The notes beneath the pieces were generated by a model, which saw nothing but the letters and a program-made list of their open reading frames with translations, was not told the DNA's origin and searched no databases. Position numbers and translations under genes: made by a program. DNA of 64,000 nucleotides from an uncultured Fimbriimonadaceae bacterium (GTDB taxonomy: Bacteria > Armatimonadota > UBA10988): positions 12,074 to 76,073 of the forward strand of contig CAYONP010000009.1 in the NCBI GenBank assembly GCA_964405335.1, given 5' to 3'. Shown here one piece after another: positions 9,391 to 26,482 of the stretch (position 1 is the stretch's first letter; every line of letters starts with the position of its first letter).

Positions 9391-9505
9391 CGGCATCGCC
9401 ATGAGTCAGATGGCGCTTGTGGAAGCTCCGCATCAGCCTCGGCGTCGCCTCGTCCGAGACCTTCCACAGGCTCATCAACAGGCTCCTCACCCTCCCCCGG
9501 AGGCG

Positions 9506-9536
9506 CCCGCGACGGGTCGCTCCAACCCGTCGCGGG
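9506..9536. terminator. Hairpin (12-bp stem CCCGCGACGGGT / ACCCGTCGCGGG) downstream of lipoprotein copy B
   Basis: Directly 3' of the 9565 stop on the minus strand. Confidence 0.4.
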
Positions 9537-9564
9537 CACTGAGCGCCCCTGTCATGGGTGCTGG

Positions 9565-10788
9565 CTAGGCGCTCGGCTTCAGCAGGATGCTGACCTCCTG
9601 GCCGTCCTGGAGCGCCCAACACAGAATGGACCCATTGGCGTTGACCGCCACGGCGCGGGTCAGCGTGTAACTCGGGTCGTTGACCAGGTCTTGTAGCCGG
9701 CGCAGGCCGCTCGCCGCGTCCCACACGAAGGGGTCTCCCCACGGCGTGTTGTCCTCTACGAGGGAGCCGAGCGGCTTGGTGTCACCGACCACCACGTCCG
9801 TGCCCGCCACGACCGCGTAGCCGGTGGCGTCGCTGTGCCCTGCCCACGGGGTGGCGCCCTGATCCTCGTGCAGCGACTGGGTGGTCCAGACCAGGGTCGT
9901 CGGACCGTCCGCCCGCCACAGAGTGGCCCGGCCCGTGCCGCTGCCGGCGTCGATCAGCATTCCGGCCACGTCGCCCTGGTTGTTGATGGTGTGCCCGCCC
10001 TCGATGGTACCGTCGAGGACGGTCAGCTCGTGCCGCGTGTAGTCGGCGCCGGTGTAGGTCCGCGACGTCGTGCCGCTGTAGGTGGCGGCGAAGGTGCCCC
10101 AGCGCGAGCCGTTGCCCGCCAGGATCAGCCCGTTGGCCAGGTCCATGGGCCACAGGTTGTGGTCCCAGGACAGGTACTGGCCGTTGGCAAGGCGGACCCA
10201 GGAGCCATAGCGGGTGGTCTTGCCCGACTTGGCGTAGGCGCCGTCCCCGCTCATGTCGCCGTTGTCGTTGACGTGATAGAAGAAGTGGGTCCCGTTGAGG
10301 AGCTTCTCATCCCTCACGGGCTCCGCCACGAAGCCACGATCGCCTGCAGGCCAGAACACCGCCCGGTCCTGCCAGCCCGTCTTGGTCTTGGCCCACCCAA
10401 AGCCGGCCAGGTCACCCCGGCTGTTGACCGAGTGGGCGTAGGAGTCGCGCTGGATCCCGCTCACCGTACCCAGCGTCCGGGCGACACCGTTGGCGTCCCA
10501 GGCCACAGCCTGGGGCGTGTCGGTGGCATCGGACGACCACCCACACGGGAGATCGTCCCCGTTGCTCACCGCCAGGTCCATGCCTGCGTGGCGCGCTCCA
10601 GCCACCAGCGGCTGCAGCGGCACGACTTGATAGGCGCTCGCCGCCGCCCGGCTTGCCGCCGGGCCCAGCCCCAGCAGGTCGCCACCGGCAGCCAACGTGC
10701 CGCCCCCGCCCCCGCAGCCCGCGACAACGAGGCAGAACGTCAGCACCAGGCCCGTCAGGGCGAGCCTGCTGAGATCGAGTCGTCGCAT
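9565..10788 (-). CDS. HAF-repeat family lipoprotein (copy B, paralog of 7974..9287)
   Basis: Start ATG at 10788; MRRLDLSRLALTGLVLTFCLVVAGC lipobox nearly identical to copy A; HAF-like repeats (AHSVNSRGDLAGFGW, YHVNDNGDMSGDGAY, GHTINNQGDVAGML, AVAVNANGSILCWA). Confidence 0.75.
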   Translation of the reverse strand: MRRLDLSRLALTGLVLTFCLVVAGCGGGGGTLAAGGDLLGLGPAASRAAASAYQVVPLQPLVAGARHAGMDLAVSNGDDLPCGWSSDATDTPQAVAWDANGVARTLGTVSGIQRDSYAHSVNSRGDLAGFGWAKTKTGWQDRAVFWPAGDRGFVAEPVRDEKLLNGTHFFYHVNDNGDMSGDGAYAKSGKTTRYGSWVRLANGQYLSWDHNLWPMDLANGLILAGNGSRWGTFAATYSGTTSRTYTGADYTRHELTVLDGTIEGGHTINNQGDVAGMLIDAGSGTGRATLWRADGPTTLVWTTQSLHEDQGATPWAGHSDATGYAVVAGTDVVVGDTKPLGSLVEDNTPWGDPFVWDAASGLRRLQDLVNDPSYTLTRAVAVNANGSILCWALQDGQEVSILLKPSA

Positions 10789-10890
10789 CGTCTTCTCCCT
10801 CGCCCGCCGCGGCCGCGCGGCCGCCGGCGCTAAATCGGATATATAGGTCCGAACTCTGTGCGAAGTCTTTGCCGACGGTGCGAGGCGACG
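10789..10890 (-). promoter_or_regulatory. Leader/promoter region of lipoprotein copy B (duplicate of 9288..9390)
   Basis: Palindrome here is CGGCCGCGCGGCCG (10810-10823): a different sequence from copy A but again a perfect 14-bp palindrome (compensatory change). Same AT-rich box GGATATATAG. Confidence 0.5.
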
Positions 10891-10931
10891 GTCGAACCGA
10901 ACCGGATCGGCCGACCAGGTTGGAGTTAGGA

Positions 10932-13900
10932 TCAGCCTGCAAGCCCGCGGAGGAGGCAGAGTGCTCGCTCGCCGGCCTGGCGGATGGTCCACCCGCGACC
11001 CTGTTCGGACGCGGCTTCGAACGCCTGCTCACCGAGCGTCTCACGCCATTGCGACAACGGCCCGGTGAGCTGCACGTCATGGACCTCGAGGGCCGGCGCG
11101 ACATTGGCGATGCGGTAGGCAGCGGCCGCAGACACGAGCCGGACCGCGTCGGCGGATGCGAGTGCCGGTATCAGGCTGACCCCCTCGATCGTGGCCAGCA
11201 CTCCGAGCTCGAGGTCGTGGCCCAGGGCGCGTTCGAGCACCTTGGCGTAGGCATCCACCGCGGCTGCCGGCCGGCCGCGCTCGCGTTCCAGATGCGCCAG
11301 GGCGACGTCGAGATAGGCCACCTGAAGGGGCTCGCCGGCCAGGTCCATCGCATCTCGTGCCTGGCGGAAGTACCACTCGGCCGGGCCGTAGTCGCCACGG
11401 CGTTGAGCGATCGCCGCCAAGCCGGCTTGATCGCTCGCTATCCGGTATGGCTGCTGGAGGACCTCGGCCAGCGACAAGGCCTGCCGATAGCCCGCCTCGG
11501 CGGCCGGTAGGTCGCCCTGGTGGAAAGCGATGCAGGCGACCATGCGAACGACGTGCTCCTCGAGTACGGGATCGCCTTCGCGCCGTGTGGCCGGCACGGC
11601 CTGAGCGAAGATCCGGCTCGCGGCTTCGAGGTTCTGGCTGCGGCGCAGCCAGTGCGCGATCATCACCAGCGACCAGACCGACGACCGGTCGTCCGCGCTC
11701 CGGCCGAGCTGGTCGAGGGCCTCGGCCTCCAGGTCGTCGGCCTCGGCCAGGCGCCCCTCGAGGCGCGCCAGCGTGCTCAGGCCGAACAGGGCGGTGGCCG
11801 CGGCGTTGCGATCCCCGAGCTCGCGAGCCAGGCCCAGATTCTGTTGCAGCCGGTCGGCGTCGGGCAGGCCCGGCATGGGACCGCCCGGTTGGTGGTCGCG
11901 CGCGAGCTGCAAACCGGCCATGTGCGTCAGCGCCTTCATCTGCTCGTGCCGGTCGCCGGCTTCGGCCCACAGCAGCAGGCTCTGTTCGGCCAGTTGGTAC
12001 GCCTCCAGCAGACGACCCTCAATGGTCGCCGCCACGTAGAGTCGTCCCAGGAAGGCGGCCAGCCGCCGCCGGTCCAATACCTGCTCGGCCGACTTCTGCG
12101 CGAGATGCCAGTGCCGGGCCGCTTCGGCGGCATCCTGATCGGCCGGCGGCAACAGCACCAGCAGATAGTGGGCCATGGCCTCGGCGGCGTGGTCACCCGC
12201 AGCAGTCCCGGCCCGCAGGGCCTCGGCGGCCCAGGTGGCGGCCTGGTCGTGACGGCCCAGCCGAAAGGCCAGCAGGCCGGCCGCCAGGGCCGCGGTCGCC
12301 CGAGCGGCAGTCAGCGTCTGGGCGCCCGGTGCGGCGAGCACAGCCTCCAGTTGTTCCAGGCCCTGGCTCCATCTGGCCTGCTGGTTCCAAAGCGCTCCGA
12401 GGGTGGCGGCCAATCGCAGGCCGTCGTCGGCCTGCTCCGCCCGCGACAGCGCTTCATCCAGGGCCATCTGAAGGTTGGCCTGCTCCTCGGCCAGTCGGCT
12501 AAGCCACACCGCCTCGTCGATCGGCCTGCCCGGCGCACCGTCGCCCAGCGCGGCGGCGAAGCAGGCGACCATCCGCGCCGACGCTCTCGGTCGCTCGCCG
12601 CGCTCGACCAACCGCTCAGCCGCGAACTCGCGGATCGTCTCGAACATCCGGTACCGCGGCTCGTCGCCCGTCAGGTCGAGCTGGAGCAGCGACCAGCCGC
12701 GGAGTAGCTCGAGGTAGTCTCTGGCCGAGGGCTCCTCGCCCACCGCTTCGGCGGCCTCGGCGCCGAAACTGCCGGCGAAGACGGACAGCCGCGCGAGGAA
12801 GGCCTGGAACGGCTCCGACAGCAGTTGGTAGCTCCAGGCGATGGCGGCTTCGAGCGTGCGGTGGCGTTCGGGCCGCCGGTCCGATCGCGCGGCCCGCCAG
12901 TGCAGCCGTTCGTCGAGCCGCTCGGCGAGGCGATGGACGCTCATCGACGGCAGGCGCGCAACCGCCAGCTCGAGCGCCAAGGGGATCCCCTCGAGGCCGG
13001 TGCAGACCGCGACTACCGCCGCCGCATTGCGTTCGCTCAAGACGAAATCAGGCACGGTGGCGCGGGCCCGATCGACGAACAGTTGCACACTCGGAACGCC
13101 GGCCACGGCGGCGATGTCGGCGCGCTCGCTCGGCAGGTCCAGCGGCTCGACCGGCACGGGTCGTTCGCCGGACAGGCCCAGTCTGCGCCGCGAGGTGGCC
13201 AGGCAGAGCAGCGACGGGCAGTCCTCGAGCAGCTTGCCGATGACCAGACCGGCCTCGGGCGTGAACTGCTCGAGGTTGTCCAGGATCAGCAGGCCGGGAT
13301 GCTCGCCAAAGAACCAGCGAAGCTGCTGATCCACGTGGCTCTGGGGTTCCAGGCCGATCCGGCGCAGAATCTCAAAGGTGAGGTCGGCCGCCGTTCGCAG
13401 GTCGGAAGCCTGAACGAACCAGGCCAGAGTGCCGCAGGTCCGCGCCATGTGCCAGCCGACCTCGACCGCCAGCCGTGTCTTGCCGCTGCCGCCCGGGCCG
13501 GTGAGGGTCACCAGGCGCGTGTCGTCGAGCAGCAACTCGGTCACCGCCGCGATCGCCGCCTCACGGCCATACGTTCGGCCCAGCACCGCGGGCAGCGCGG
13601 CGGTCACCGGCCGCTCCAGCGCCAATGGCTGCCCCACCGCGGCGCTGTCGGTGGCGAAGATCCCACAAGCCGCCGCTCCAGACCGGAGCCGGTACTCGCC
13701 CAGGCTAACCAGGCTCAAGTGCCGGCGGGCGCCCTGGCGCAGCAAGGCGGCGGTGGCCTCGGTCACGAGCAGTTGCCCATCCACCGCGGCGCGACGCAGT
13801 TGCTCGACCGATTCGGCTGCGGGACCGTCGAGCCGGAGGCTGACGTCAGCGGTATGGACGGCCAGCGCGAACTCGTTGTCGCGGACCCGCTCAGCGAAGG

Positions 13901-14891
13901 CGAACGCGTCGCCGGCGCGAGCAAAGGCGACCACGATGCCGTCGTCGTCGCGACGCGCCGGCACGGCACCGAATCGTTCGGCCTCGTCGGCAAGGCAGGC
14001 TGGCGCCGCGACGAAGGTCACGGTGCCGGTCAGGTCCGGATCACCGGCGGGCCGAAGGTCGAGCACCGCCAGGTCTTGGCGGGCCTTGTCGGGCTCGCCC
14101 AGCAGGGCCAGCAGCTCGGTGTCGGGTTCCCAGTCGCCGGTTCGGCGGCGCCTGGCGACGAACCCGTCGAGATGCCGACGAGCCGCCGCGCGGTCGTCCA
14201 CGGCCAGCTCGAGCTGCACGAGTCGACGGAGCAGTGGTTCGCAATCCGGCTCGGCCGAGTTGCCCAGGCGGGCCACCCGCAGGGCCTCGCCCGGCCGGCC
14301 GGCGGCGACATGCCACTCCACCAGCGCTTCCACTGCTTCGACGAAGCACTGCCGCAGCCGCGCCTCCTCGCTCAGCACCCACCGTTCGTAGCAGCAGGGC
14401 AGCAGCGGACCGCCATAGACCGACACGACCTGCTCGAATCGCGCTTGGCGCAACTCGTCGGTCGCCCGACCTGCCGCCTGGTAAGCCGCATCGAGCTGCT
14501 GCACGTCGGTCTCGAGCAGCTCATCCCGAACCCAGACCGACCGCCGGTCGGCTAGGACAAGCGTCTCCTTAGCCTGCTCCGGAGGGCAGAGCTGGCGGCG
14601 CAGGACGGATAGAGTGTAGCTCAGTCTGCCGCGCCCGCTGTCGGCTCCGCAACCGGGCCAGAGCAGCTCGATCAGCTCGTCACGTTCGTGCCGGCGGTGC
14701 GGGTGGTAGGTCAGGTAGGCGAGCAGTGAGGCCGCCTTCTGCGTGCGGAAGCGACAGAGCGTGCCGCCGGCATGCCGAACCTCGAGGGAGCCGAGCAGCC
14801 GTACCTGGTAGCCAACCACCTGACCGACCTTCCCCGACGGCGGACCTGCTCGCCCTGCGGAACAGAAGCGATGTGTACACCAGTGTGTCAA
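10932..14891 (-). CDS. SARP/AfsR-like transcriptional regulator: OmpR-type winged-helix DBD + BTAD + cyclase-like segment + NB-ARC P-loop ATPase + TPR repeats
   Basis: N-terminal YQVRLLGSLEVRHAGG...LLAYLTYHPHRRHERDELIELLWPG (SARP DNA-binding), Walker A LTGPGGSGKTRLAVEV, long C-terminal TPR-like helical repeats. True start may be an internal GTG near VGQVVGYQV. Confidence 0.8.
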   Translation of the reverse strand: MTHWCTHRFCSAGRAGPPSGKVGQVVGYQVRLLGSLEVRHAGGTLCRFRTQKAASLLAYLTYHPHRRHERDELIELLWPGCGADSGRGRLSYTLSVLRRQLCPPEQAKETLVLADRRSVWVRDELLETDVQQLDAAYQAAGRATDELRQARFEQVVSVYGGPLLPCCYERWVLSEEARLRQCFVEAVEALVEWHVAAGRPGEALRVARLGNSAEPDCEPLLRRLVQLELAVDDRAAARRHLDGFVARRRRTGDWEPDTELLALLGEPDKARQDLAVLDLRPAGDPDLTGTVTFVAAPACLADEAERFGAVPARRDDDGIVVAFARAGDAFAFAERVRDNEFALAVHTADVSLRLDGPAAESVEQLRRAAVDGQLLVTEATAALLRQGARRHLSLVSLGEYRLRSGAAACGIFATDSAAVGQPLALERPVTAALPAVLGRTYGREAAIAAVTELLLDDTRLVTLTGPGGSGKTRLAVEVGWHMARTCGTLAWFVQASDLRTAADLTFEILRRIGLEPQSHVDQQLRWFFGEHPGLLILDNLEQFTPEAGLVIGKLLEDCPSLLCLATSRRRLGLSGERPVPVEPLDLPSERADIAAVAGVPSVQLFVDRARATVPDFVLSERNAAAVVAVCTGLEGIPLALELAVARLPSMSVHRLAERLDERLHWRAARSDRRPERHRTLEAAIAWSYQLLSEPFQAFLARLSVFAGSFGAEAAEAVGEEPSARDYLELLRGWSLLQLDLTGDEPRYRMFETIREFAAERLVERGERPRASARMVACFAAALGDGAPGRPIDEAVWLSRLAEEQANLQMALDEALSRAEQADDGLRLAATLGALWNQQARWSQGLEQLEAVLAAPGAQTLTAARATAALAAGLLAFRLGRHDQAATWAAEALRAGTAAGDHAAEAMAHYLLVLLPPADQDAAEAARHWHLAQKSAEQVLDRRRLAAFLGRLYVAATIEGRLLEAYQLAEQSLLLWAEAGDRHEQMKALTHMAGLQLARDHQPGGPMPGLPDADRLQQNLGLARELGDRNAAATALFGLSTLARLEGRLAEADDLEAEALDQLGRSADDRSSVWSLVMIAHWLRRSQNLEAASRIFAQAVPATRREGDPVLEEHVVRMVACIAFHQGDLPAAEAGYRQALSLAEVLQQPYRIASDQAGLAAIAQRRGDYGPAEWYFRQARDAMDLAGEPLQVAYLDVALAHLERERGRPAAAVDAYAKVLERALGHDLELGVLATIEGVSLIPALASADAVRLVSAAAAYRIANVAPALEVHDVQLTGPLSQWRETLGEQAFEAASEQGRGWTIRQAGERALCLLRGLAG

Positions 14892-14985: not shown

Positions 14986-16035
14986 TCAGCGCGCTGTTGC
15001 GGCGTCACCGCCGCGGCCTGAGGAGCGCGTCAGCCGCGCCAGGTCCGACCGCACCATCAGCTCGACCAGCTCGGCGAAACTGACCTTCGGCTGCCAACCA
15101 AGCTCGGTCCGGGCCTTGCTCGGATCGCTCAGCAGCAGGTGTACCTCGGCCGGGCGGAAAAACCGCTCGTCGAGCCGCACCACGGCGCGGCCGGTCTTGG
15201 AGCAGCGGCCCACCTCGTCGAGCCCTTCGCCCTCCCACGCCAGCTCAATCCCGGCGGCGCCGAAGGCCAGCTCGACGAAGTGCCGCACGGTGTGCGTCGC
15301 GCCCGTGCCGACCACGTAGTCGTCTGGCTCGTCGCGCTGGAGCATCCGCCACATCGCCTCGACGTAATCGCCGGCGAAGCCCCAGTCGCGCTTGGCGTCC
15401 AAGTTGCCAAGCCGTAGGGAGTCGCTCAGGCCGAGCCGGATCCGCGCGGCGCCGTCGCTGATCTTGCGGGTGACGAACTCGAGCCCGCGCCGTGGACTCT
15501 CGTGGTTGAACAGGATACCGCTGCAGGCGTACAGGTCATAGCTTTCGCGGAAGTTGACCGTGATATAATGGCCGTAGACCTTGGCCACGCCGTACGGGCT
15601 GCGGGGATGGAACGGCGTCGTCTCGCGCTGCGGGGTCTCGCGCACCTGGCCGAACATCTCGCTCGAGCTGGCCTGGTAGAACCGCGCGCCCGGCGCCGCG
15701 CGGCGCATCGCCTCGAGCATCCGCATCACGCCCAGGGCGGTGATCTCGCCGGTCAGCTCGGGCTGGTTCCAGCTCGTCGGGACGAAGCTCTGCGCGGCCA
15801 GATTGTAGACTTCGTCGGGCGACGCCTCGCGGATCGCCTCGGCCAGCGAATGCTGATCGAGCAGGTCACCCGGCAGCAGGCAGAGCTGCTCCTGGATGTG
15901 CTCGATGCGGTCGAAGTTGACGGTGCTGCTGCGGCGCACCAGGCCAAAGACCTGATAGCCGCGCTCGAGCAGCAGCTCGGCCAGGTAGCTGCCGTCCTGG
16001 CCGGTGATGCCGGTGATCAGCGCGCGTCGGCTCAT
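14986..16035 (-). CDS. gmd: GDP-mannose 4,6-dehydratase
   Basis: [37 protein letters not shown]... canonical Gmd; start ATG complement 16033-16035 is in frame with track ORF 14986..16656, whose upstream extension is artefact. Confidence 0.9.
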
Positions 16036-16185
16036 GCGCCGGTGCTCCGCGGCGATCATACCCGCGGCGAGGCCGGGGCTCAAGGGCCGTTTGACGTGGC
16101 GAGCAGCCGGCGCCGGACCGCCCCGCCGCGGGCCAGACGCCGCATGACACGGGTCGAAGTCGTGGACCGACATGGCAGCAGCGCA

Positions 16186-16420
16186 AGCCCCCACCCCCAA
16201 CCCCTCCCCCGCGCGGCGCGGGGGGAGAGGGGAGCCATCGCAACGACCGGACCGCCGGCGTCCTCGCCGGCCGGCGGACGTGCGCGTCGGCCAGGCGCCA
16301 ACACCTGGCCCCTCCCCCGCGCGGCGCGGGTGTGGTGGGTGGTGTCGTAGGTGACCGCCTATCTCCCTGACTCCCCTCTCCCTGGCGCCGCGCCAGGGGG
16401 AGGGGTCGGGGCGGGGGCCG
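16186..16420. repeat. Cluster of three C-tract/G-tract inverted repeats (CCCCTCCCCCGCGCGGCGCGGGG...) including a G-quadruplex-type run GGGGGAGGGGTCGGGGCGGGGG (16396-16417)
   Basis: Seen in sequence: 16201-16232, 16310-16330 and 16373-16404 share the CCCCTCCCC / GGGGAGGGG arms. Confidence 0.5.
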
Positions 16421-16460
16421 TTAGCGAGCGTGTCGCCGGCCCGGCCACGGCTGGCCAGCG

Positions 16461-16727
16461 GGCGGGCGGGGACGCCTGCGCGCCGAGGCTCGCGCCGCCG
16501 GCCCAAGGTAGCGCGCTCTCGCCGAGAGCGCTGCTCGCGTCGTCGCATCGCCAGTTGCCAACCGGCGCTACGGCGCTTCTGCCTCGACGCCGCCGGCCCA
16601 AGGTAGCGCGCTTTCGCCGAGAGCGCTGCTCGCGTCATCGCATCGCCGGTTACCAACCGGCGCTACGGCGCCTCCTCCTCGGCGCCGGCGGGCGGGGACG
16701 CCCGCGCTCCGGCGCTCGCGCCGCGGG
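16461..16727. repeat. Two 81-bp direct repeats (16496-16576 and 16591-16671, 5 mismatches) bracketed by two copies of a GGCGGGCGGGGACGCC(Y)GCGC element (16461, 16687)
   Basis: Each 81-bp unit contains an internal hairpin GCGCTCTCGCCGAGAGCGC. Not CRISPR-like (only 2 units, 14-bp gap). Confidence 0.6.
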
Positions 16728-16755
16728 CAGGCCGGCAGCGCCCATCGACCGCACC

Positions 16756-17517
16756 TCAGTCGACCGGCGACAGCGTCACAATCGCCCGCCGCGGCAGGCC
16801 CGGGGCCGCGTGCGGGGTATAGGTGGCGCGCACCCGCGTTTCGCCGCCGGCGGCGTTGGTCACCAGGTACTCGGCGTCGACCACCGGCTCCAGGTTGAGC
16901 AGCGAGCAGAGGCCCGGGCAGTCGCCCTTGGTCACCGTCGTGCCGTCGTCGTGGTGGCAGCCGAACAGCTCGCTGCACAGCGGGCCGTGCTGCATCTGCC
17001 GGCTGGTCAGCCCGATGAACTGCTCGGCCGAGGCGTTGCAGGCCAGCACGCGGCGCTGCTCGTCGATCAGAAAGACCGGCGCGGCGGCCTCGAGCAGGTG
17101 CTGCGGCAGCCGGCCCGGCGCCTGCTCACCCGAGAGCACCCGGCGATAGCCGTCAGCAGTCTCGAGCTGCGCCAGCTCGGCGGCATCGGCGAGGGCGATG
17201 CGGGCCAGCCAGCCGTCGCCGAGGGGATCTTCGTTGACCAGGCCCGGCCTCGCCCAGAGGTCCTCGTTGATGGCTGCCACCGCGCCCTGGACCGGCGGAA
17301 AGAGCTGGGTGAGACCGTAGCCCGCCGACTGCAGGCTGCCCAGCGGCAGGCCGAACGTCGCCGGCGCGCCGACGGCCGGCAGACCCACATGAAAGACGCG
17401 CCCGTGCCGCTCTTGACCGTGCTCGGTCAGGCCGACGGTGGCCGTCGTGCCGTCGCAGGCGACCCAGAGGTGGCTGGCGGTGTAACGCCACTCGTCGGGA
17501 AGCGTGTAGTTCGCCAC
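16756..17517 (-). CDS. GcvH-like (lipoyl-fold) domain fused to a Cys-rich PAS-like domain
   Basis: GTG start at 17517 (VANYTLPDEWRYTASHLWVACDGTTATVGLTEHGQ...GDGWLARIAL = glycine-cleavage H fold, but the lipoyl-Lys position reads LQSAGYG, i.e. no Lys), followed by LIDEQRRVLACNASAEQFIGLTSRQMQ...GCHHDDGTTVTKGDCPGLC. Confidence 0.55.
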   Translation of the reverse strand: MANYTLPDEWRYTASHLWVACDGTTATVGLTEHGQERHGRVFHVGLPAVGAPATFGLPLGSLQSAGYGLTQLFPPVQGAVAAINEDLWARPGLVNEDPLGDGWLARIALADAAELAQLETADGYRRVLSGEQAPGRLPQHLLEAAAPVFLIDEQRRVLACNASAEQFIGLTSRQMQHGPLCSELFGCHHDDGTTVTKGDCPGLCSLLNLEPVVDAEYLVTNAAGGETRVRATYTPHAAPGLPRRAIVTLSPVD

Positions 17518-17613
17518 AAAACCCTCCGCGGCCGGAGCAGTGGCGCTCGGCGCCCCGGCACGTCGCCTACCAGTATATGCAACAGACCTGCCCGGCGTCA
17601 CCAAATCGGTTTC

Positions 17614-17679
17614 GGGCGGGCGGCGACGCCCGCGCTCCGGGGCGGGCCGCCGGCGGGCGGCGACGCCCGCGCTCCGGGG
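17614..17679. repeat. Tandem duplicate of GGCGGGCGGCGACGCCCGCGCTCCGGGG (17614-17642, 17652-17679), same family as the 16461/16687 elements
   Basis: Seen in sequence between the flhB stop (17692) and the GcvH-PAS start (17517). Confidence 0.55.
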
Positions 17680-17691
17680 CGCGCGACTCGC

Positions 17692-18756
17692 TCACGACCG
17701 GGGCATGTGGCCGCGCAACCGATAGACGAAGGCCAGCACCTCGGCCACCGCGGCGTAGAGCTCGGGCGGCACCAGATCGCCGACGTCGCAGGCGGCGAAC
17801 AAAGCGCGGGCCAGCGGCGGGTTTTCGACGATGGGCACCTCAGCCGCCTCGGCCAGCTCGCGGATGTGGAGCGCGGTCAGCCGCTGGCCCCGGGCGACCA
17901 CCTGCGGTGCGTCCATCTGGTCGGCATCGTACTTCAGCGCGACGGCGTAGTGGGTCGGGTTGGTGACCACCACATCGGCGCCGCGCACGGCGCTGGCCAT
18001 CAGGCGGCGGGCCATCTCGCGCTGCCGGCGGCGGATGGCGCCGCGGACCTCGGGCGAGCCCTCCTGCTGCTTCAGCTCGTCGCGGATCTCCTCGCGGGTC
18101 ATCATCAACTGCTTCTCGTGTGAGTAGCGCTGCCAGGCGTAGTCGATGGCCGCAATCACCGCCAGCGCGGTGAGCGTGCGCAGCACCAGCGCCTTGACCA
18201 GCTCGCCCGAGCGGGTCAGGGCCGAGACCAGGTCCATCCAGCTCAGCTCGAGCATCGCGGGATAGCTGGCCTTCAGCCAGCTCCAGACCGCCCAGCCGAC
18301 GACCAGCAGCTTGGCGCTCGACTTGAGCAGCTCGACGATTGCCTGCGCCGAGACGAGCTTCTTGATCCCGGCAATCGGGTCGAGCTTCTTGGCGTCGAAC
18401 TTCAACCCCTCACCGGTCAGCATCGGCCCGGTCTGCAGCAGGTTGCCCGCCACGCCGGCGATGACCACCGCCAGCATCAGCGGCAGCAGCAGTAGGACCG
18501 CCGGCACGACCAGCCGGACCACGCCCTGCGCCAGCGCGTCGCGGCCGCGCAGGCCGAGCGCGGCGTCGAAGAAGTAGACCATGCTGGTCTGGAAGGTCTC
18601 CCACGCCGCCGGCCCCATGGCGCGCAGCGAGGCGAAGCCGGCGAGCAGCACGAGCACCGAGACAATCTCGCGGCTCTTGGCGACTTGACCCTTGCGGCGC
18701 GCGTCCTCGCGCCGCTTCTGAGTCGCGGGCTCGGTTTTCGAGTCGAACAGGCCCAT
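17692..18756 (-). CDS. flhB: Flagellar biosynthesis protein FlhB
   Basis: 354 aa, MGLFDSKTEPATQKRREDARRKGQVAKSREI..., NPTHYAVALKY autocleavage motif. Confidence 0.9.
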   Translation of the reverse strand: MGLFDSKTEPATQKRREDARRKGQVAKSREIVSVLVLLAGFASLRAMGPAAWETFQTSMVYFFDAALGLRGRDALAQGVVRLVVPAVLLLLPLMLAVVIAGVAGNLLQTGPMLTGEGLKFDAKKLDPIAGIKKLVSAQAIVELLKSSAKLLVVGWAVWSWLKASYPAMLELSWMDLVSALTRSGELVKALVLRTLTALAVIAAIDYAWQRYSHEKQLMMTREEIRDELKQQEGSPEVRGAIRRRQREMARRLMASAVRGADVVVTNPTHYAVALKYDADQMDAPQVVARGQRLTALHIRELAEAAEVPIVENPPLARALFAACDVGDLVPPELYAAVAEVLAFVYRLRGHMPRS

Positions 18757-19538
18757 CAGCGCACCATGCCCAGGATCTGCGGCACGTTGTGGCTGATCAC
18801 CGCCATCGCCTGCGCCAGCGCCGTCGACAGCGTCGGCAGCGTGAGATAGAGCGTCGCCAGGCCGACCATGACCTTGATCGGCATGGCCACCAGGAAGACG
18901 TTGAGCTGCGGCACGACGCGGCCGACGATGCCCATCGCGACGTCGATCAGGAGCAGCACCAGCACCGCCGGCAGGGCGAGCTGGATGGCAATCGCGGTGA
19001 GCAGGCCGAGCATCCCCGAGACCGGCCCGATGGCGGCCAGGTTGGGCATCGCCGTGCCGATCGGCGCGACTTCATAGGTGGCGGCCAGCGTGCGGAGCAT
19101 CAGGTGATGCCCGTCGGCTTGAAGAAAGAGCAGCAGCAGCAGCGAGTTGACGAAGTGCCCGAGGACCGAGAGATTGACCTGCGAGCCGGGATCGACCAAC
19201 TGCATGAAACCGAGACCGATCTGCACGTCGAGCGCGTTGATGGCGAACTGGAAGGCGCTGAACATCAGCCGGGCAAGGTAGCCGACGGCGATGCCGACCA
19301 TCGTCTCGCGGCAGAGCATCAAGCCCAGCGCGACCAGCGGCAGGTCGGCGGGGATCGCCCCAACCGGCACCCACATCAACAGCCAGGCGCAGAGCGCGGC
19401 CAGCCCGGCGCGGCAGGCGCCGGGGACGGTGCGCTCGCCGAACACCGGCAGCACGGCGAAGAAGCCGCCGAGCCGGGCGAAGACGAGCAGAAAGCGGATC
19501 AGCAGCGCGGCGGAGAGGTGGAGCGGATCGACCTCCAT
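18756..19538 (-). CDS. fliR: Flagellar biosynthesis protein FliR
   Basis: 260-aa polytopic membrane protein directly between fliQ and flhB; FliR-like. Confidence 0.85.
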   Translation of the reverse strand: MEVDPLHLSAALLIRFLLVFARLGGFFAVLPVFGERTVPGACRAGLAALCAWLLMWVPVGAIPADLPLVALGLMLCRETMVGIAVGYLARLMFSAFQFAINALDVQIGLGFMQLVDPGSQVNLSVLGHFVNSLLLLLFLQADGHHLMLRTLAATYEVAPIGTAMPNLAAIGPVSGMLGLLTAIAIQLALPAVLVLLLIDVAMGIVGRVVPQLNVFLVAMPIKVMVGLATLYLTLPTLSTALAQAMAVISHNVPQILGMVR

Positions 19539-19542
19539 CGGG

Positions 19543-19812
19543 TCACCGGACCAGGGCGGGGAAGCCGCCGAACAGCCGCGCGGAGAAGGTCAGCATGACG
19601 TTGGCCATCCACGGCGCGCAGACCAGGACGACGAGAAAGACGGCGATGATCTTGGGCACGAAGGCGAGGGTCATCTCCTGCACCTGCGTGGCCGCCTGAA
19701 TGACCGAAATGAGCAGACCGACCGCCAGCGCGATGCCGAGCGGTGGGAGCATCAGCAGCAGCATGGTCAGGATGCTGTCGCGACCGATGGTCATCACCGT
19801 GGCGGCGTCCAT
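19543..19812 (-). CDS. fliQ: Flagellar biosynthesis protein FliQ
   Basis: 89 aa, two TM helices, LMLPPLGIALAVGLLISVIQAATQVQEMTL. Confidence 0.9.
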   Translation of the reverse strand: MDAATVMTIGRDSILTMLLLMLPPLGIALAVGLLISVIQAATQVQEMTLAFVPKIIAVFLVVLVCAPWMANVMLTFSARLFGGFPALVR

Positions 19813-19820
19813 GGCGGCTC

Positions 19821-20573
19821 CTACCCGAAACTCGCGGCCAGGCCGCGGACGACCAGGTGCCAGCCGTCGACCAGCACGAACATGAGCAGCTTGAACGGCA
19901 GCGAGATGATCACCGGCGGGAGCATCATCATGCCCATCGACATGACCGTGCTGGCGACCACGATGTCGATCACCAGGAACGGGATGTAGAGCAGGAAGCC
20001 AATCTCGAAGGCGGTTTTGATCTCGCTCAGGCAGAACGAGGGGATGAGCACGTAGCTCGGCGTCTCGGCGCGGGTGGCCGGGCGCGGCTCCTTGGCCATG
20101 TCGAGGAACAGCGCCAGGTCGTTCGGCCGGGTATTGCGAAACATGAACTCGCGCAGCGGCTCCATCGCCGCGGCCAGCGCCTGCTTGCTGTCCAGCTCGT
20201 CGGCCAGGTAAGGCTCGACCGCGACGGTCTGGATCTGCCGGAACGTGGGTGCCATGATGAATAGCGTCATGAACAGCGCGAGGCCGATGATGACCTGGTT
20301 CGGCGGCACCTGATGCGTGCCCAGCGCCTGGCGCAAAAAGCCCAGCACGACGATGATGCGGGTGAAGCTGGTCAGCATCAGCAGCATCGTCGGGGCGAGG
20401 ACGATGACCGTCAGCAGGAACATCACCTGCAGCGACGAGTAGCTCTCGACCCGCGTTTCGGGCTGGGTCAGCTGCACGCTGATGCCGGGCAGCGGCAGCA
20501 CGTCGTCGCCCTGGGCCAGCGCCGCGCCGGCACAGAGGGCGAGGACGAGCAGCGGCAGCAGGCGACGGATCAT
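19821..20573 (-). CDS. fliP: Flagellar biosynthesis protein FliP
   Basis: 250 aa with signal peptide; SFTRIIVVLGFLRQALG and GLALFMTLFIMAPTF FliP blocks. Confidence 0.9.
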   Translation of the reverse strand: MIRRLLPLLVLALCAGAALAQGDDVLPLPGISVQLTQPETRVESYSSLQVMFLLTVIVLAPTMLLMLTSFTRIIVVLGFLRQALGTHQVPPNQVIIGLALFMTLFIMAPTFRQIQTVAVEPYLADELDSKQALAAAMEPLREFMFRNTRPNDLALFLDMAKEPRPATRAETPSYVLIPSFCLSEIKTAFEIGFLLYIPFLVIDIVVASTVMSMGMMMLPPVIISLPFKLLMFVLVDGWHLVVRGLAASFG

Positions 20574-21070
20574 CGGCCCACCGCCTCGAGGCGAACGGTC
20601 TGCAGCCGGGCGAGGAAGCTCTCGGGGCCCGGTTCGGCGGGATCGAAGCCGACCTCGCCGGCGGGCAGCTCGAGCAGGCAGCTCAGCCCCTCGCCGCTGC
20701 TGCCGAGCAAGATGGCCCGCTCGCCGAGGGCGACCAGGTGCAGCCCGCGGCCGCCGCCGAGCGGCAGCGTCTCGAGCAGGCGCAGGCGCTGCTTGAGCGG
20801 CGCCGCGGTGCGCGGCCCGAACCGCAGCCGGGCCAGCCAGGCAACGCCGATGACCATGCCGAGCACCAGCACCAGCGAGCCGAGCGTGCGCAGGATGAGC
20901 AGGGCGGGGTGCGGACCGAAGGCCGGGAGTGCCGGTGAAACGTACGGCTCGACCGTCTCCTGCGCCATGGCGCCGACGGTAAGGGAGGCGATGCTCGCCA
21001 GGCAGAGCCCGAGCCGTAGGCGTGCGGGCCCCGCATCACGCAGGTGCGGTGAGCCGATCGTTCCAGCCAC
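20570..21070 (-). CDS. fliO: Putative FliO (short single-TM protein upstream of fliP)
   Basis: Position and a TM segment (LILRTLGSLVLVLGMVIGVAWL); 4-bp overlap with fliP; start uncertain. Confidence 0.5.
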   Translation of the reverse strand: MAGTIGSPHLRDAGPARLRLGLCLASIASLTVGAMAQETVEPYVSPALPAFGPHPALLILRTLGSLVLVLGMVIGVAWLARLRFGPRTAAPLKQRLRLLETLPLGGGRGLHLVALGERAILLGSSGEGLSCLLELPAGEVGFDPAEPGPESFLARLQTVRLEAVGR

Positions 21071-21180
21071 TGGCGTCCCCGGGGTCGGGCCGCGGCTCGC
21101 CGTCAGTTAAGCGAGCTTAAGCCCCGCCCGTCGGAGGCCATTCTGCCGGTGGTCCGGCGCGGCGGCATAGCCAGCGCTGG

Positions 21181-21495
21181 CTATCTTTGCCCGGCGCGGC
21201 GCGGCCGGTTCGGCCGCCGGTCGGCTTTCTTCGCGTGCTGGCCGGCAATCTCGGTCACCCGCACGGCGAACGCGTCGTCCTGCACGACCACCTCGCCGAG
21301 GGCGATGATCCGCCCGCGGCAGCGCAGCTCGACCGGCTCGCCGGCGAGGCGGTCGAGGGTGACCACCGATCCGGGCCCAAGCCGCTCGACCTCGCGAAAG
21401 CGCATCGTCGTGCGGCCGAGTTCGACCTGCACGCTCAGGCGCACCCGCTCCAGTCGGCGCAGCTCGGTCAGCGGCTCTGCCGGCGCGGCGCTCAT
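21181..21495 (-). CDS. Second FliN-domain (SpoA) protein, 104 aa
   Basis: ATG complement 21493-21495 overlaps the upstream fliN stop (ATGA). VQVELGRTTMRFREVERLGPGSVVTLDRLAGEPVELRCRGRIIALGEVVVQDDAFAVRVTEI is a FliN/SpoA C-terminal domain. Confidence 0.6.
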   Translation of the reverse strand: MSAAPAEPLTELRRLERVRLSVQVELGRTTMRFREVERLGPGSVVTLDRLAGEPVELRCRGRIIALGEVVVQDDAFAVRVTEIAGQHAKKADRRPNRPRRAGQR

Positions 21496-22106
21496 GCCGT
21501 CGCTCCCAGGGCGGTGATGCGGATGCCGAAACTGTCGTCGACCACGACCACCTCGCCCCGCGCGATGCACTTGTCGTTGATGAACAACTCGACCGGCTCG
21601 CCGGCCAGCTTGTCCAGCTCGACCAGCGAGCCGGGGTGCATCTTGAGAATGTCCTCGATGGTCATCTCGGTGCGGCCGATTTCGGCCGAGACCTGCAGCA
21701 TCACGTCGGCCAGCAAGTCGTGATCGCCGACCCGGTCGTGCTCCTTGTGTGTCGCGCCGAAGGCGCCGCCGGCCGCCGCGGCGAGGCTGCCGGTCGCCTG
21801 GCCGGTGGTGTCGGTGTAGGTCTCGGCGGCATCGAGCGCGTCGGCCAGCAGCGCGCTGATGGCGTCCTGGCCGAGCAGCTCGCGGCCCTCGCCCGTGGCG
21901 GTCGGCGCGGCCGTGCCGATGGGCTCGGTGCTCAGCTCCTCGAGCGGCTCTTCGTTGGCCACCGGCTCGTCGGCCGGCTCGTCGGCCGGCTCGTCGGCCG
22001 GCTCCGGCTCGTCGCTGCCGGCGCCGGCCAGCAGCTCGGCCAGCTCGTCGGGGCTGACCTGCTCGTCGGCGGCCGGGCTGTCGGTCTGGTTCGTCTCATC
22101 GGACAT
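21492..22106 (-). CDS. fliN: Flagellar motor switch protein FliN (acidic low-complexity N-terminus + SpoA domain)
   Basis: MSDETNQ... (PADEPADEPADEP), then VMLQVSAEIGRTEMTIEDILKMHPGSLVELDKLAGEPVELFINDKCIARGEVVVVDDSFGIRITAL. Alternative GTG start at 22118. Confidence 0.75.
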   Translation of the reverse strand: MSDETNQTDSPAADEQVSPDELAELLAGAGSDEPEPADEPADEPADEPVANEEPLEELSTEPIGTAAPTATGEGRELLGQDAISALLADALDAAETYTDTTGQATGSLAAAAGGAFGATHKEHDRVGDHDLLADVMLQVSAEIGRTEMTIEDILKMHPGSLVELDKLAGEPVELFINDKCIARGEVVVVDDSFGIRITALGATA

Positions 22107-22118
22107 GGTTGCGCCCAC

Positions 22119-22757
22119 CTATTGCATCACAAACTCGCGCAGATAGATCGCGGTCATCGGTACCGGCGAGGTGCCACCGGCGGCATCGTCGACAATCGCG
22201 GCGAAGCGCTCGAGCAGCACCGTCTTGAGCCCCTCCTTGCCCGCGGCCGCCTGCAGCTCGGCAAACTCGCGCGAGCTGACCTCGAGCAGCAGCGAGTCCT
22301 GCATCCGCGTCTGGACATCGGCGCTGAGGAGCAGCCGGATGAGGGCCAGCACCGCCTCGCTCGGCCCCTCGCGCGGGGGCAGCTTGGCGTCGGCCGGCGG
22401 TGGATCCGGCTCCGGCGGCACGTCGGGGTCGATCTTGGCCATGGTCAACCGGAAGTGGTGCGCGTCGAGGGGATCGAGCTCGAACCCAATCGCCACCTGG
22501 CAGCGGATGTAGCGGTCGCCCTCGGCCAGGTTGACCGTCAGGGGAGCCAGCGGGTAGACCACCGTTTCGAGCACCGGATCGGCATCCCAGGCGGCCTGCG
22601 CGTCGGCCTGCTGCCGGGCCTTGTTCTGCTGCCAGAGAAAGCCCGCCGCGCCCAGCGCGGCCAGCGCGACGACTCCGAGCAGCAGGATCATGCCCTTGCC
22701 GCGCTTCCTCTTCGGCTCGGCGCCCTCGGTTCCCTGGGCGGCCTCTGCTTCGGCCAT
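22119..22757 (-). CDS. fliL: Flagellar basal-body-associated protein FliL
   Basis: 212 aa, single N-terminal TM, LAPLTVNLAEGDRYIRCQVAIGFE FliL block. Confidence 0.8.
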   Translation of the reverse strand: MAEAEAAQGTEGAEPKRKRGKGMILLLGVVALAALGAAGFLWQQNKARQQADAQAAWDADPVLETVVYPLAPLTVNLAEGDRYIRCQVAIGFELDPLDAHHFRLTMAKIDPDVPPEPDPPPADAKLPPREGPSEAVLALIRLLLSADVQTRMQDSLLLEVSSREFAELQAAAGKEGLKTVLLERFAAIVDDAAGGTSPVPMTAIYLREFVMQ

Positions 22758-22769
22758 GCGTCACTCTCC

Positions 22770-23531
22770 TCAGGCCGCGCGGGCCAGCAAGCCCATCGCC
22801 CGGTGGACCTGCAGCCGCTCGGCCACCAAGCGCGGGTGCAGGCGTTGCTGCAGCAGCACCAGGCCATCGATCCAAAGCTCCCGCTCGGCCGCGCGCAGGC
22901 GCAGCGCCCGCCGGCGGAGCAGCATCTGCGGCGCGCAGACCAACTGCGCCAGCGCCACGCCATAGCCGGTGGCCAGCAGCGCGCCGGCCAACGCCGGCGC
23001 CATCGCCTCGGGCGGGCCCAGCAGCGACTGCACCATGCCGGCCAGGGTCAGAATCACCCCGCCGTTGACCGCGCCCTCGGCCAGCCGCTGCCAGCCCTCG
23101 GTCGGCTGGCGGTCGAGCGCCTCGAGCTCGGCCGCGGCCTGGCGCAGCGCCGCCTCCAACGCCGTCGGCTCGACCTCGGCGCTGAGCAACCGAAGCGCCA
23201 GCCCTTCGAGTAGACCGCCCGCGGCACTGGACTGCTGGGCGAGCCAGCGCTCGCCGTGGCTCCGGTAGCCGCGCGACAACTCGATCAGGCGGGCCGCGGC
23301 GGCCTCGATATCGGCCTCGGCCGGGCGGTCGAAGATGCGCCGTACCGCTGACAGGGGCTGGCAGCAGAACAGGTATCCGACCGCCGACAGCACCACCGCC
23401 GCCAGCGCCACGGGATGCCACAGTCCGGCCGGCCGGCCGGCCAGTCCGGAGCCGACCGCGAGAGCCGCTACCGCGATGAGGTAACCCGCCGCGGTGAGCG
23501 ATCGCTGCAGAGCTCGCGTTGGTCTTGGCAT
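22770..23531 (-). CDS. motA: MotA/PomA-like stator proton-channel protein
   Basis: Start ATG at 23531 (in frame with track ORF 22770..23684). Four TM segments; TM3/TM4 region GGVILTLAGMVQSLLGPPEAMAPALAGALLATGYGVALAQLVCAP with the conserved prolines of the MotA/ExbB/TolQ family. Confidence 0.65.
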   Translation of the reverse strand: MPRPTRALQRSLTAAGYLIAVAALAVGSGLAGRPAGLWHPVALAAVVLSAVGYLFCCQPLSAVRRIFDRPAEADIEAAAARLIELSRGYRSHGERWLAQQSSAAGGLLEGLALRLLSAEVEPTALEAALRQAAAELEALDRQPTEGWQRLAEGAVNGGVILTLAGMVQSLLGPPEAMAPALAGALLATGYGVALAQLVCAPQMLLRRRALRLRAAERELWIDGLVLLQQRLHPRLVAERLQVHRAMGLLARAA

Positions 23532-23535
23532 CGAT

Positions 23536-24513
23536 CTAGATCTCGTCGCGTTCGGCCCGAAACTTAGCCCGGCAGAGCATGACCAGCAGGTAGCCGGCGA
23601 CCATCGCCTCGAGCGGCCGGCGCACCGGCAGCGCCGGCGGCCGGCCCGCGCCGCCGGGGGCGTCGGCCCGGATGAGCAGCCCACGCGGCCGCCACTCGCG
23701 CACGCCGCGCACCGCGTCGAGTCGTGGCTTCAGGCGGTCGGCCTCGCGCGCCAGGTGGTCGACCAGCCGCTCGAGCGACCGCGCCTGAGGTTCGCCGTCA
23801 TCGCCGCCGACCTCATACAGCAACGCCACCGCACGGTGCCGCGCGGCGAAGTAGCGGTGGCACAGGCTGGTCGCATAGCCGGCCGGGGTGCGGGTCAGGC
23901 GGATCGGCTGACCGACCCGCTGCTCGCCGGCGACGATGCCGCGGGCCAGCGACTCGGCCAGGCCGTCGAGCGCCCGGTCGCCGGTCGGGTACCACTCGAT
24001 CCAGTCCGCCTCGCGCGGGCCGGCGCGGCGCATGCCGAACTGGTGCAGGTCGATCACGAGGTGCGGCTGCCAGGCGTCGAAAACCCGCATCACCGCCCGG
24101 TTCTCGGCTTGATCGCGAAGCAGCCACGAGCGGTTGAGGTCGACTCCGCGGCTGTTGGCCCGCCGCCCACGCGCGGCGCCGTCAGGGTTGACCGTGGGCA
24201 TCAGCAGCACCGCGACGCGGTCGAACGGCGCGTTGCGGCCGGCGGCGCTCTCCATCCAGCGCACCGCGGCGCGTGCCGGCGCCGGCTCGTCACCATGCTG
24301 CTGGGCCAGGACCAGCACTCGGATCTGCTCCTCGGGCGCACCCGGCCGCATGGTCGCAATCAGCAGCGGGAGGTCACGTCCCTCGGTGCTGGTGCCCGCC
24401 GACTGCGCAAACAGGTGTGGCGCCGCGGCCGACCAACGCGCGACGGCGGCGGCCACGTCGGCCGGCGCGCCGGCGACGGGCAGGGACAGCAGGCCGGCAA
24501 GCAGCCACCTCAC
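23536..24513 (-). CDS. Secreted M14-family zinc carboxypeptidase-like protein (peptidoglycan peptidase type)
   Basis: Signal peptide MRWLLAGLLSLPVAGAPA; zinc-binding QHGDEPA (HxxE), VNPDGAARG, LNRSW, VIDLHQFG (second His). Sits between flbD and motA, where motB is normally found. Confidence 0.7.
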   Translation of the reverse strand: MRWLLAGLLSLPVAGAPADVAAAVARWSAAAPHLFAQSAGTSTEGRDLPLLIATMRPGAPEEQIRVLVLAQQHGDEPAPARAAVRWMESAAGRNAPFDRVAVLLMPTVNPDGAARGRRANSRGVDLNRSWLLRDQAENRAVMRVFDAWQPHLVIDLHQFGMRRAGPREADWIEWYPTGDRALDGLAESLARGIVAGEQRVGQPIRLTRTPAGYATSLCHRYFAARHRAVALLYEVGGDDGEPQARSLERLVDHLAREADRLKPRLDAVRGVREWRPRGLLIRADAPGGAGRPPALPVRRPLEAMVAGYLLVMLCRAKFRAERDEI

Positions 24514-24731
24514 CGCGCGGTCTCCGCCTCGACGATCGGCCGGAAGGCGACCCGGCGCTGGTACTCGACGACCTTGTCGACCACCGTCTCGACCGGGTCG
24601 TCGACCAGGTAGAGCTTGCCGGTGTGGAGCCGGATGACGGTGTCGGGCGTCGCCTCGATGGTCTCGATCAGGGCGGCGTTGAGCACGAAGCTCGAGCCGT
24701 CGAGCCGGCGCAGTCGGATCATGGCAGTCAC
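24510..24731 (-). CDS. flbD: Flagellar protein FlbD
   Basis: 73 aa: MIRLRRLDGSSFVLNAALIETIEATPDTVIRLHTGKLYLVDDPVETVVDKV, a close match to FlbD. Confidence 0.8.
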   Translation of the reverse strand: MTAMIRLRRLDGSSFVLNAALIETIEATPDTVIRLHTGKLYLVDDPVETVVDKVVEYQRRVAFRPIVEAETAR

Positions 24732-24772
24732 CTCGGCCCGGCCGGCTCAGGCCGGCCGGGCCGCGTTCAGGC

Positions 24773-26014: not shown

Positions 26015-26100
26015 CTGCGTTGTCCTCCATGCTGGCCGGCCGCAATCGGCGACCGGCGCGGGGCTTCCTGGTGAGGACCGGCCCCGGGCGGCTCGTCCGC

Positions 26101-26466: not shown

Positions 26467-26482
26467 CGCGCGCCTCCTCGGC

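Follow-up and report, generated by a model that had tools for sequence, protein, structure and literature searches.

GcvH-PAS, a lysine-less H-protein fold joined to a PAS domain, beside the end of a clade-typical split flagellar cluster in an uncultured Fimbriimonadaceae bacterium

The subject of this study is a gene of unusual domain composition and its position next to flagellar genes in a window of 64 kb (G+C content, 70.6%), which is the whole stretch of DNA that was analysed, from contig CAYONP010000009.1 of an uncultured Fimbriimonadaceae bacterium (Armatimonadota). The gene (positions 16756-17517, minus strand; GTG start with a GGAGGG Shine-Dalgarno sequence) encodes a protein of 253 aa in which a domain resembling the glycine cleavage H-protein, GcvH, is fused to a PAS domain, and we refer to it as the GcvH-PAS gene. 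On the same strand, across a gap of 174 nt, lies flhB (17692-18756, minus strand; Pfam Bac_export_2, E = 6e-124), the last gene of a flagellar cluster. We conclude that flhB is probably the 3' boundary of one of the two split flagellar clusters typical of this clade, and that the GcvH-PAS gene is a resident that came to lie beside flhB through a species-specific rearrangement rather than an insertion that replaced flhA. The preliminary description of the window had favoured the latter, with the gene as an inserted, repeat-flanked element standing in the place of flhA.

Residency is indicated by the surroundings of the gene in relatives, whose loci are referred to here by L numbers. In four independent relatives (L001, L002/L003, L005/L006, and L009/L010), the GcvH-PAS gene, a conserved single-copy gene, is divergent from a DUF218 gene and a 410-aa TIM-barrel gene that matches the L-rhamnose isomerase family TIGR02635 at or just under its cut-off (RhaI-like below). 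On the other side, the gene for GDP-mannose 4,6-dehydratase, gmd (14986-16035 in the window, minus strand; Pfam, E = 7e-140), lies behind the GcvH-PAS gene in L005 too, and the Gmd protein there is 76% identical to that of the window; the spacer between the two genes is 720 nt long and filled with repeats in the window versus 132 nt in L005. The gene is therefore resident, being syntenic in four relatives, and because its adjacency to gmd is common to L005 and the window, it did not move alone; it was the end of the flagellar cluster that was juxtaposed to it. An upstream flhB occurs only on contigs of the same species, namely L008, whose GcvH-PAS protein is 99% identical, and L118 and L120, whose FlhB is 100% identical. 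The two genes are on separate contigs in GCA_020850355.1 (L001 and L121) and in GCA_964531735.1 (L002 and L125), and L006 with L128 likewise has the GcvH-PAS gene and the flagellar cluster unlinked. Related genomes in which flhB adjoins the GcvH-PAS gene without repeats, which the preliminary description would have taken for the ancestral arrangement, were not seen. No FlhA, RhaI, or DUF218 homologue was found by tblastn in the 64-kb window, and the Pfam scans, which took in 35 large open reading frames (ORFs), also gave no FlhA.

The end of the cluster at flhB is itself shared with relatives. In the fla/che-type supercluster of Firmicutes, spirochaetes, and Thermotogae, the order is ...fliP-fliQ-fliR-flhB-flhA-flhF-flhG.... 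The fliJ-to-flhB order of the clade and the flhA-to-flgL order of the relatives are of this type, and the FlhB proteins nearest to those of the clade outside the phylum are from Firmicutes (~45% identity); what differs is that in most lineages of the clade the supercluster is split between the two. The region downstream of flhB is readable in five lineages, window included, and a sixth lineage (L127/L128) was read for flhA. In four of these five, flhB is the last gene of the cluster, with a different neighbour each time: the window departs from the flhB-then-flhA order with the GcvH-PAS gene, and the same break is followed by a convergent polysaccharide deacetylase-like gene (weak Pfam match) in L121, by a convergent glycosyltransferase gene in L124, and by a gene for an extracytoplasmic function sigma factor in L125, none of these three loci having a GcvH-PAS gene at this spot. 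The only lineage read with flhB and flhA adjacent is that of L122, where flhB is followed, after a gap of 183 nt, by flhA-flhF-...-flgH-flgI, and where neighbouring genes abut or overlap. In L127/L128, flhA lies behind a BNR-repeat gene and heads a cluster of the order flhA-flhF-(flhG)-pilZ-fliA-...-flgH-flgI-flgJ-flgM-x-flgK; in this second cluster of the relatives, flhA stands ~9.5 kb upstream of flgI.

The flhB/flhA junction is a recurrent break point in the clade, and most lineages have had the ancestral supercluster divided and reshuffled there. The split is old and widespread, and it predates this species. Since it also occurs in lineages whose GcvH-PAS gene is elsewhere, a replacement of flhA by the GcvH-PAS gene is not supported. 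The flhA gene of the window species is probably elsewhere in its genome, ~9.5 kb beyond the window start if the synteny of the relatives holds. Among the matches listed, no FlhA homologue is on the contig carrying the FlhB identical to that of the window; a look-up with the window FlgI returned a 3-kb contig (L126) alone, and the FlhA homologue P0291 belongs to another species. For flagellar genomics, the pattern carries a caution, as a cluster that stops at flhB in this clade is no sign of loss or replacement of flhA.

These comparisons bear directly on the proposal that the GcvH-PAS gene is a repeat-bounded cassette inserted behind flhB, displacing or replacing flhA. Such a cassette would fit the presence of one hairpin family to either side of the gene but at no other place in the 64 kb, and the restriction of the flhB-GcvH-PAS adjacency to this species. 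However, the four repeats are all in direct orientation, and no integrase or transposase was found near the gene in Pfam scans of the window ORFs; the shared gmd, the single-copy syntenic occurrence in four other lineages, and the presence of the flhB/flhA split where the GcvH-PAS gene lies elsewhere all speak against it. The combination of an empty site in relatives, flanking repeats, and a recombinase was not found. The cassette model is already largely refuted by synteny, and we regard it as very improbable.

Our preferred reading, a resident gene reached by the flagellar cluster end, can be put as a sequence of events. A rearrangement specific to this species would have swapped the RhaI-like side of the GcvH-PAS gene for the end of the flagellar cluster, with a break point in the spacer that now holds hairpin repeats. 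The gene would have kept a promoter of its own, for which a promoter-like site, GTGACG-18-TATACT (17572-17601, minus strand), between the hairpins and the GcvH-PAS start is a putative candidate by consensus match; the scan of 15900-17800 gave two promoter-like sites versus 0.0 expected from shuffles, and a putative site of gmd lies at 16055-16083. The two GC hairpins behind flhB, which lack U tracts, could act as a terminator or 3'-end stabiliser of the flagellar operon, which is a reasonable guess. A single inversion joining flhB/flhA with rhaI/GcvH-PAS was considered as a necessary explanation and rejected, because the flhB/flhA split predates the species.

Two side observations concern the 5' region of the GcvH-PAS gene. 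The divergent spacer between it and the RhaI-like gene has a block common to all four relatives, AGTCTAGCACCGCCCG ... CGTCAACGC (L001 9852-10000, L002 9857-10000, L005 9851-10000, and L009 5827-5963), without counterpart in the spacer of the window; this could be an operator or promoter that the window species lost when its locus was rearranged. In the window, the scan for terminator patterns picked out a small hairpin, CTCCG-GCCG-CGGAG followed by GGTTTTGTGG (17524-17537), which overlaps the Shine-Dalgarno sequence and GTG start and could occlude the ribosome-binding site.

The protein holds more interest than the flagellar part of the locus, which is ordinary for this clade. It is a new combination of known domains, in which the lipoyl-lysine is lost and the hairpin that would bear it is invariant, joined in a rare architecture to a PAS domain in which three or four cysteines are conserved. 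The AlphaFold model of the full protein, built on 17 family sequences, has a mean predicted local distance difference test score (pLDDT) of 89.4 and a predicted template-modelling (TM) score of 0.83. The GcvH-like domain (residues 11-128; nt 17134-17487, minus strand; Pfam GCV_H, E = 1.1e-24) has the GCV_H barrel-sandwich fold according to both Pfam and Foldseek, and the N-terminal half superposes on the solved H-protein 1onl with a TM score of 0.95 and a root-mean-square deviation of 1.3 Å. The N-terminal 130 residues thus share the fold of GcvH (Pfam PF01597, TIGR00527), with 34% identity to the Thermus H-protein and the sequence motifs of the family. In contrast to GcvH, profile alignments to solved H-proteins place Gly66 of YLQSAGYG at the position of the lipoyl-lysine, with one extra residue in the hairpin; the protein is fused to a PAS domain and scores below the NCBIfam GcvH cut-offs (TIGR00527/NF002270; 93.4 bits versus 115.85, and 96 bits versus 117). 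No lysine occurs at or adjoining the lipoyl position in the 17 family clusters, nor in two distant relatives, and the hairpin segment, YLQSAGYGLTQLFPPVQG, is the best-conserved segment of the protein. The window and the gene tables of L001, L002, L005, L008, and L009 contain neither gcvT/gcvP nor lipoylation genes. As read from its sequence, the domain cannot carry lipoate at the canonical lysine position. Given the missing lysine, the absence of gcv neighbours, and the sub-threshold score, a metabolic H-protein role is excluded.

H-protein folds outside glycine cleavage are known from GcvH-L and other H-protein paralogues (PDB 5a35; TIGR03077, 'not_gcvH'; NF045810). GcvH-L keeps the modifiable lysine and works with a macrodomain/sirtuin operon. 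The GcvH-PAS protein matches these families weakly (Foldseek E = 1e-6 to Streptococcus GcvH-L, 5a35; E = 1e-10 to TIGR03077), but it scores far under their cut-offs, and none of them has a PAS domain. A further protein in the representative library, P0140 (1391 aa), has three tandem GcvH-like domains that, read by eye, are apparently lysine-less at the hairpin (LLSIQPT, LFSVQPM, and LLSIQSM), together with a GlcD-type flavin adenine dinucleotide (FAD) oxidase domain, a 4Fe-4S dicluster domain, and two CCG (HdrD/GlpC-like) domains; this appears to be a redox enzyme in which the H-protein fold is, once more, put to a non-canonical use.

The C-terminal part of the GcvH-PAS protein (residues ~140-251; nt 16765-17100, minus strand) is borderline in Pfam, where residues 144-191 match PAS_8 with 22.0 against a cut-off of 21.8 and PAS with 22.3 against 22.6. 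Modelled alone, it has an AlphaFold pLDDT of 86.7, and Foldseek aligns it to many PAS structures with TM scores of ~0.7-0.8 (0.69-0.78); it has the five-stranded antiparallel sheet and flanking helices of a PAS fold. In the model of the full protein, the GcvH fold is predicted to pack rigidly against the PAS fold. Four cysteines (Cys181, Cys187, Cys200, and Cys204; motif C-x5-C-x12-14-C-x3-C) are invariant in the core family, and the first three are kept in the two distant full-length relatives (40% and 29% identity), in both of which another cysteine close by takes the place of the fourth. The secondary structure of the AlphaFold model places these residues on or between two short helices that precede the long strands, and these helices would line the usual PAS cofactor pocket.

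The closest known analogue of such an arrangement is the PAS domain of NreB. Two forms of it bind different clusters, [4Fe-4S] in that of Staphylococcus carnosus (C-x2-C-x11-C-x2-C) and [2Fe-2S] in the three-cysteine form of Bacillus licheniformis (C-x2-C-x11-C) (PMC13478379). The likeness of the GcvH-PAS protein to NreB lies in a PAS fold with three or four conserved cysteines, two of them close together and then, after a gap of 11-14 residues, one or two more, at ~40-65 residues from the PAS start in both. It differs in lacking a histidine-kinase output and any detectable sequence similarity, and the PAS half has neither the NreB motif nor demonstrable homology to it. We suggest by analogy that the protein may "work like" NreB and claim no membership of that family. 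The top 50 fold matches of the PAS half did not include NreB PAS, although its structure may post-date the library searched; compared as a profile with PDB sequences, the PAS half had no informative relative, only weak matches to the PAS domains of DosP.

We take the GcvH-PAS protein to be, most likely, a sensor of redox state or metal, or an adaptor, that works as a stand-alone protein. Its cysteines would ligate an iron-sulfur (Fe-S) cluster or else a metal ion, or they would serve as redox-active thiols in a thiol switch, so that the protein could sense redox state, oxygen, sulfide, or metal, and the lysine-less hairpin of the H-domain would be a contact surface for a partner protein. A more specific version, which we put forward only tentatively, holds that GcvH-PAS proteins are an undescribed family of stand-alone sensors in which three or four cysteines in the PAS pocket form an Fe-S or thiol site that monitors redox state, oxygen, or sulfide and signals through a lipoyl-less H-domain that mimics the H-protein and docks on glycine-cleavage or lipoyl-handling enzymes. 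If this were true, signalling output would be a new function of the H-protein fold; if an Fe-S cluster is bound, the domain would be a third, independent type of cysteine-ligated Fe-S PAS beside the two NreB types, and again the H-protein fold would have a non-catalytic use. In all, the preliminary description read the protein well: it had recognised a 253-aa product behind the repeats, a GcvH fold without its lipoyl-lysine (the lysine stayed absent on realignment), and a cysteine-rich PAS-like partner, and it had considered a sensor-type role more plausible than a metabolic one, as we do.

The cysteines might instead be a structural zinc site or disulfides, in which case the protein would be no sensor but a scaffold or decoy that binds the enzymes recognising H-proteins (GcvP, GcvT, LplA, LipB, and LipA). 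The very close superposition of the H-domain on true H-proteins would suit such a role, as would the exceptional conservation of the segment corresponding to the lysine-bearing hairpin and the lack of an output domain. Yet no gcv or lipoylation gene adjoins the GcvH-PAS gene in any locus read, and three cysteines conserved down to 29% identity on the helices of the PAS pocket fit a cofactor site better than a structural one, a weak argument. We consider the decoy explanation unlikely, and somewhat less so than the two remaining alternatives to our reading, the cassette above and the operon below.

Several points weigh against the overall account of a resident, stand-alone sensor gene joined to the flagellar cluster by rearrangement. 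The rearrangement is deduced from the synteny of relatives and not reconstructed from the flhA and rhaI loci of the window species itself, and the promoter of the GcvH-PAS gene is a consensus match only. The flhB and GcvH-PAS genes share a strand and the hairpins between them have no U tract, so that co-transcription is possible; folded as RNA, the hairpins, taken as a pair and singly, and each 95-nt unit of the tandem described below (transcribed strand, plus one on the other strand) were no stabler than dinucleotide shuffles (z from -0.8 to +1.2), which lends no specific support to a terminator or other RNA role. As for function, the 253 residues hold only GCV_H and PAS and no kinase, GGDEF/EAL, helix-turn-helix, or methyl-accepting chemotaxis output domain; no conserved functional partner gene was found; the PDB sequence search gave no similarity of the PAS half to any solved Fe-S PAS domain; and the cysteine spacing, C-x5-C-x12-14-C-x3-C, differs from the C-x2-C-x11-C(-x2-C) of NreB.

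The possibility of co-transcription leads to the remaining alternative, in which the GcvH-PAS gene of this species would have become a member of the flagellar operon, its product regulating flagellar assembly or motility in response to redox state or oxygen. PAS sensors often feed into motility control, and a gene 174 nt downstream of flhB on the same strand, with no canonical U-tract terminator between, is placed as such a regulator might be. Against this, where relatives possess flagellar clusters as well as the GcvH-PAS gene, the two are unlinked, on separate contigs (L001/L121, L002/L125, and L006/L128), a promoter-like site stands ahead of the gene, and the protein has diverged from its unlinked orthologues no more than the species distance (57-66% identity), keeping the 72 invariant positions. 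Recruitment into the operon seems to us improbable. Because the linkage is confined to one species, a flagellar role is unsupported, and the protein is without a role in glycine cleavage and without a demonstrable role in flagellar export. Residency beside a relocated cluster end is the reading that we retain.

The family is small. A word-indexed search returned 17 clusters of GcvH-PAS proteins, all full length and 57-66% identical, whose labelled members are from metagenome-assembled genomes of Armatimonadota or Fimbriimonadaceae. The exhaustive profile search of 1.84 billion representatives gave three full-length clusters at the 50% level, followed by ordinary H-proteins and a few multi-H-domain proteins. 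The family-invariant positions kept by the window protein, 72 in number, include Q63, G68, and the four cysteines. No report of a GcvH-PAS fusion was found in a full-text literature search combining GcvH, PAS domain, and lipoyl.

The spacers around the gene are rich in repeats. Directly behind the flhB stop at 17692 stand two tandem copies of a 28-mer, GGCGGGCGGCGACGCCCGCGCTCCGGGG, with the stem GCGGGCG/CGCCCGC and the loop GCGA, at a period of 37 nt: copy 1 (17615-17642, plus strand), proximal to the GcvH-PAS gene and present in all strains, and copy 2 (17652-17679, plus strand). Copy 3 (16687-16712, plus strand; one mismatch, loop GGGA) is 44 nt downstream of the GcvH-PAS stop, and copy 4 (~16461, plus strand; repeat entry 16458-16502, hairpin 16461-16486), diverged and also with the loop GGGA, is on the far side of a tandem duplication of 2 x 95 bp (16493-16682) whose units are 92-95% identical and contain two short palindromes each. 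The exact 26-mer core of the hairpin is found at copies 1 and 2 and has no match in 100 shuffles. The preliminary description was right about the tandem pair behind flhB and the further copies downstream, and gave the period of the tandem repeat as 81 bp, which has to be corrected to 95 bp (2.1 copies over 16489-16691). All four hairpins of the family in the 64 kb lie within 1.2 kb around the GcvH-PAS gene and are in direct orientation, none was found in ~190 kb of related Armatimonadota loci, and the 95-bp unit has no other copy in the window.

These spacers are unstable, as the copy number of the hairpin differs between near-identical strains: among those with 100% identical FlhB, L118 and L120 have one unit, and the window and L008 have two, the difference being a 37-bp deletion in L118/L120 of exactly one hairpin unit. 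(The short-read contigs L118 and L120 break off within the first of the 95-bp units.) Local slippage or unequal recombination would have produced the hairpin units and the 95-bp duplication, as is supported by strains having gained or lost exactly one unit of 37 nt. The suggestion that the repeats mark a rearrangement hotspot therefore survives in a weaker form, in that a real synteny break coincides with unstable spacers. No structured RNA is claimed at the repeats, in view of the shuffle-level folding and of an Rfam scan of 15500-18200 at permissive thresholds that gave one chance microRNA match (E = 0.42). The gmd-proximal part of the 720-nt spacer also has a 22-nt exact direct repeat (16201-16222 and 16309-16330) and, at 16304-16410, the C-rich/G-rich palindromes CCCCTCTCCCTGGCGC / GCGCCAGGGGGAGGGG.

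In being short, GC-rich, intergenic hairpins that are tandem or paired and variable in copy number among strains, the window repeats resemble repetitive extragenic palindromic (REP) sequences and the REPINs formed from them. They differ in numbering only four copies at one locus in 64 kb and in the occurrence of an identical 24-29-nt sequence across many phyla, untypical of species-specific REPs. No gene for a RAYT (Y1 transposase) turned up among the 35 large ORFs in the general Pfam scan, which was not exhaustive. The census of the element that the preliminary description called for, made with a 21-mer pattern on genome contigs, returned at least 105 DNA stretches from many phyla, with no Armatimonadota among the matches listed. 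A search of a plasmid collection with the hairpin gave chance-level matches only. The 95-bp unit as a dispersed element was ruled out for JGI metagenomes, where the search gave one unrelated 29-nt hairpin match.

The form of the hairpin with the GGGA loop (16461-16486 and 16687-16712 in the window; loci L015-L117 elsewhere) is part of GGCGGGCGGGGACGCCCGCGC, which is found with exact identity in intergenic DNA of at least 10 phyla, including Verrucomicrobiota, Acidobacteriota, Kiritimatiellia, Bacteroidota, Chloroflexota, Desulfobacterota, Sumerlaeota, and Hydrogenedentes, as well as Paramagnetospirillum isolates; the matching length is 24-29 nt. Among the matches listed, T(C/A)C, which was outside the search pattern, stands behind GGCGGGCGGGGACGCCCGCGC in 49 of 64 copies, and 13 GGGA-loop copies have a second hairpin of the family at most 60 nt away, in tandem or inverted. 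The 40 GCGA-loop matches among those listed have no conserved extension and look like chance in high-GC coding DNA. No paper on a hairpin sequence of the GGCGGGCGGGGACGCCCGCGC type was found in the literature search, and GGCGGGCGGGGACGCCCGCGC-T(C/A)C is an unexplained element.

All genes around the flhB/GcvH-PAS junction are on the minus strand. The flagellar cluster that ends there (~17692-29002, minus strand; assigned with Pfam) has the order fliJ, a gene for an SLT-FliK fusion, flgE, a small ORF, a gene for an M14 peptidase, a weakly MotA-like gene, fliL, a FliMN_C-domain gene, fliO, fliP, fliQ, fliR, and flhB. The small ORF (24510-24746) occupies the flbD slot of the relatives, and beside the FliMN_C-domain gene, the gene calls of the relatives have a second, small FliN-type gene. 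In fla/che-type clusters, motA-motB usually sits between flbD and fliL; the clade differs in having at this position the M14 zinc carboxypeptidase gene and a gene of 236-249 aa (22770-24513 in the window). The pair is kept in three relatives (L121 3883-5606, L122 3775-5595, and L125 3503-5283), and its second member matches MotA_ExbB weakly in the window (E = 5e-6) and has no Pfam match on record in the relatives. FliK, the hook-length control protein (Flg_hook), carries an N-terminal SLT lytic transglycosylase domain (26898-28520 in the window), and this fusion too is kept in relatives (L121 1-1362 and L122 1-1253), the proteins being 826-914 aa long.

The window opens with the tail of the second flagellar cluster (3-4823, plus strand), which is convergent to the first and comprises a flgH fragment, flgI, a rod-binding/flgJ-like gene, flgM, flgK, and flgL, identified by Pfam, the gene calls of L126, tblastn (58-69% identity), and synteny with L122 and L127. 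The interval that separates the two clusters (4826-14891, 10 kb) looks like a variable island, with a STAND-type NTPase of 1319 aa (NACHT/AAA_16 plus TPR) and three ORFs of 379-525 aa that have no Pfam match.

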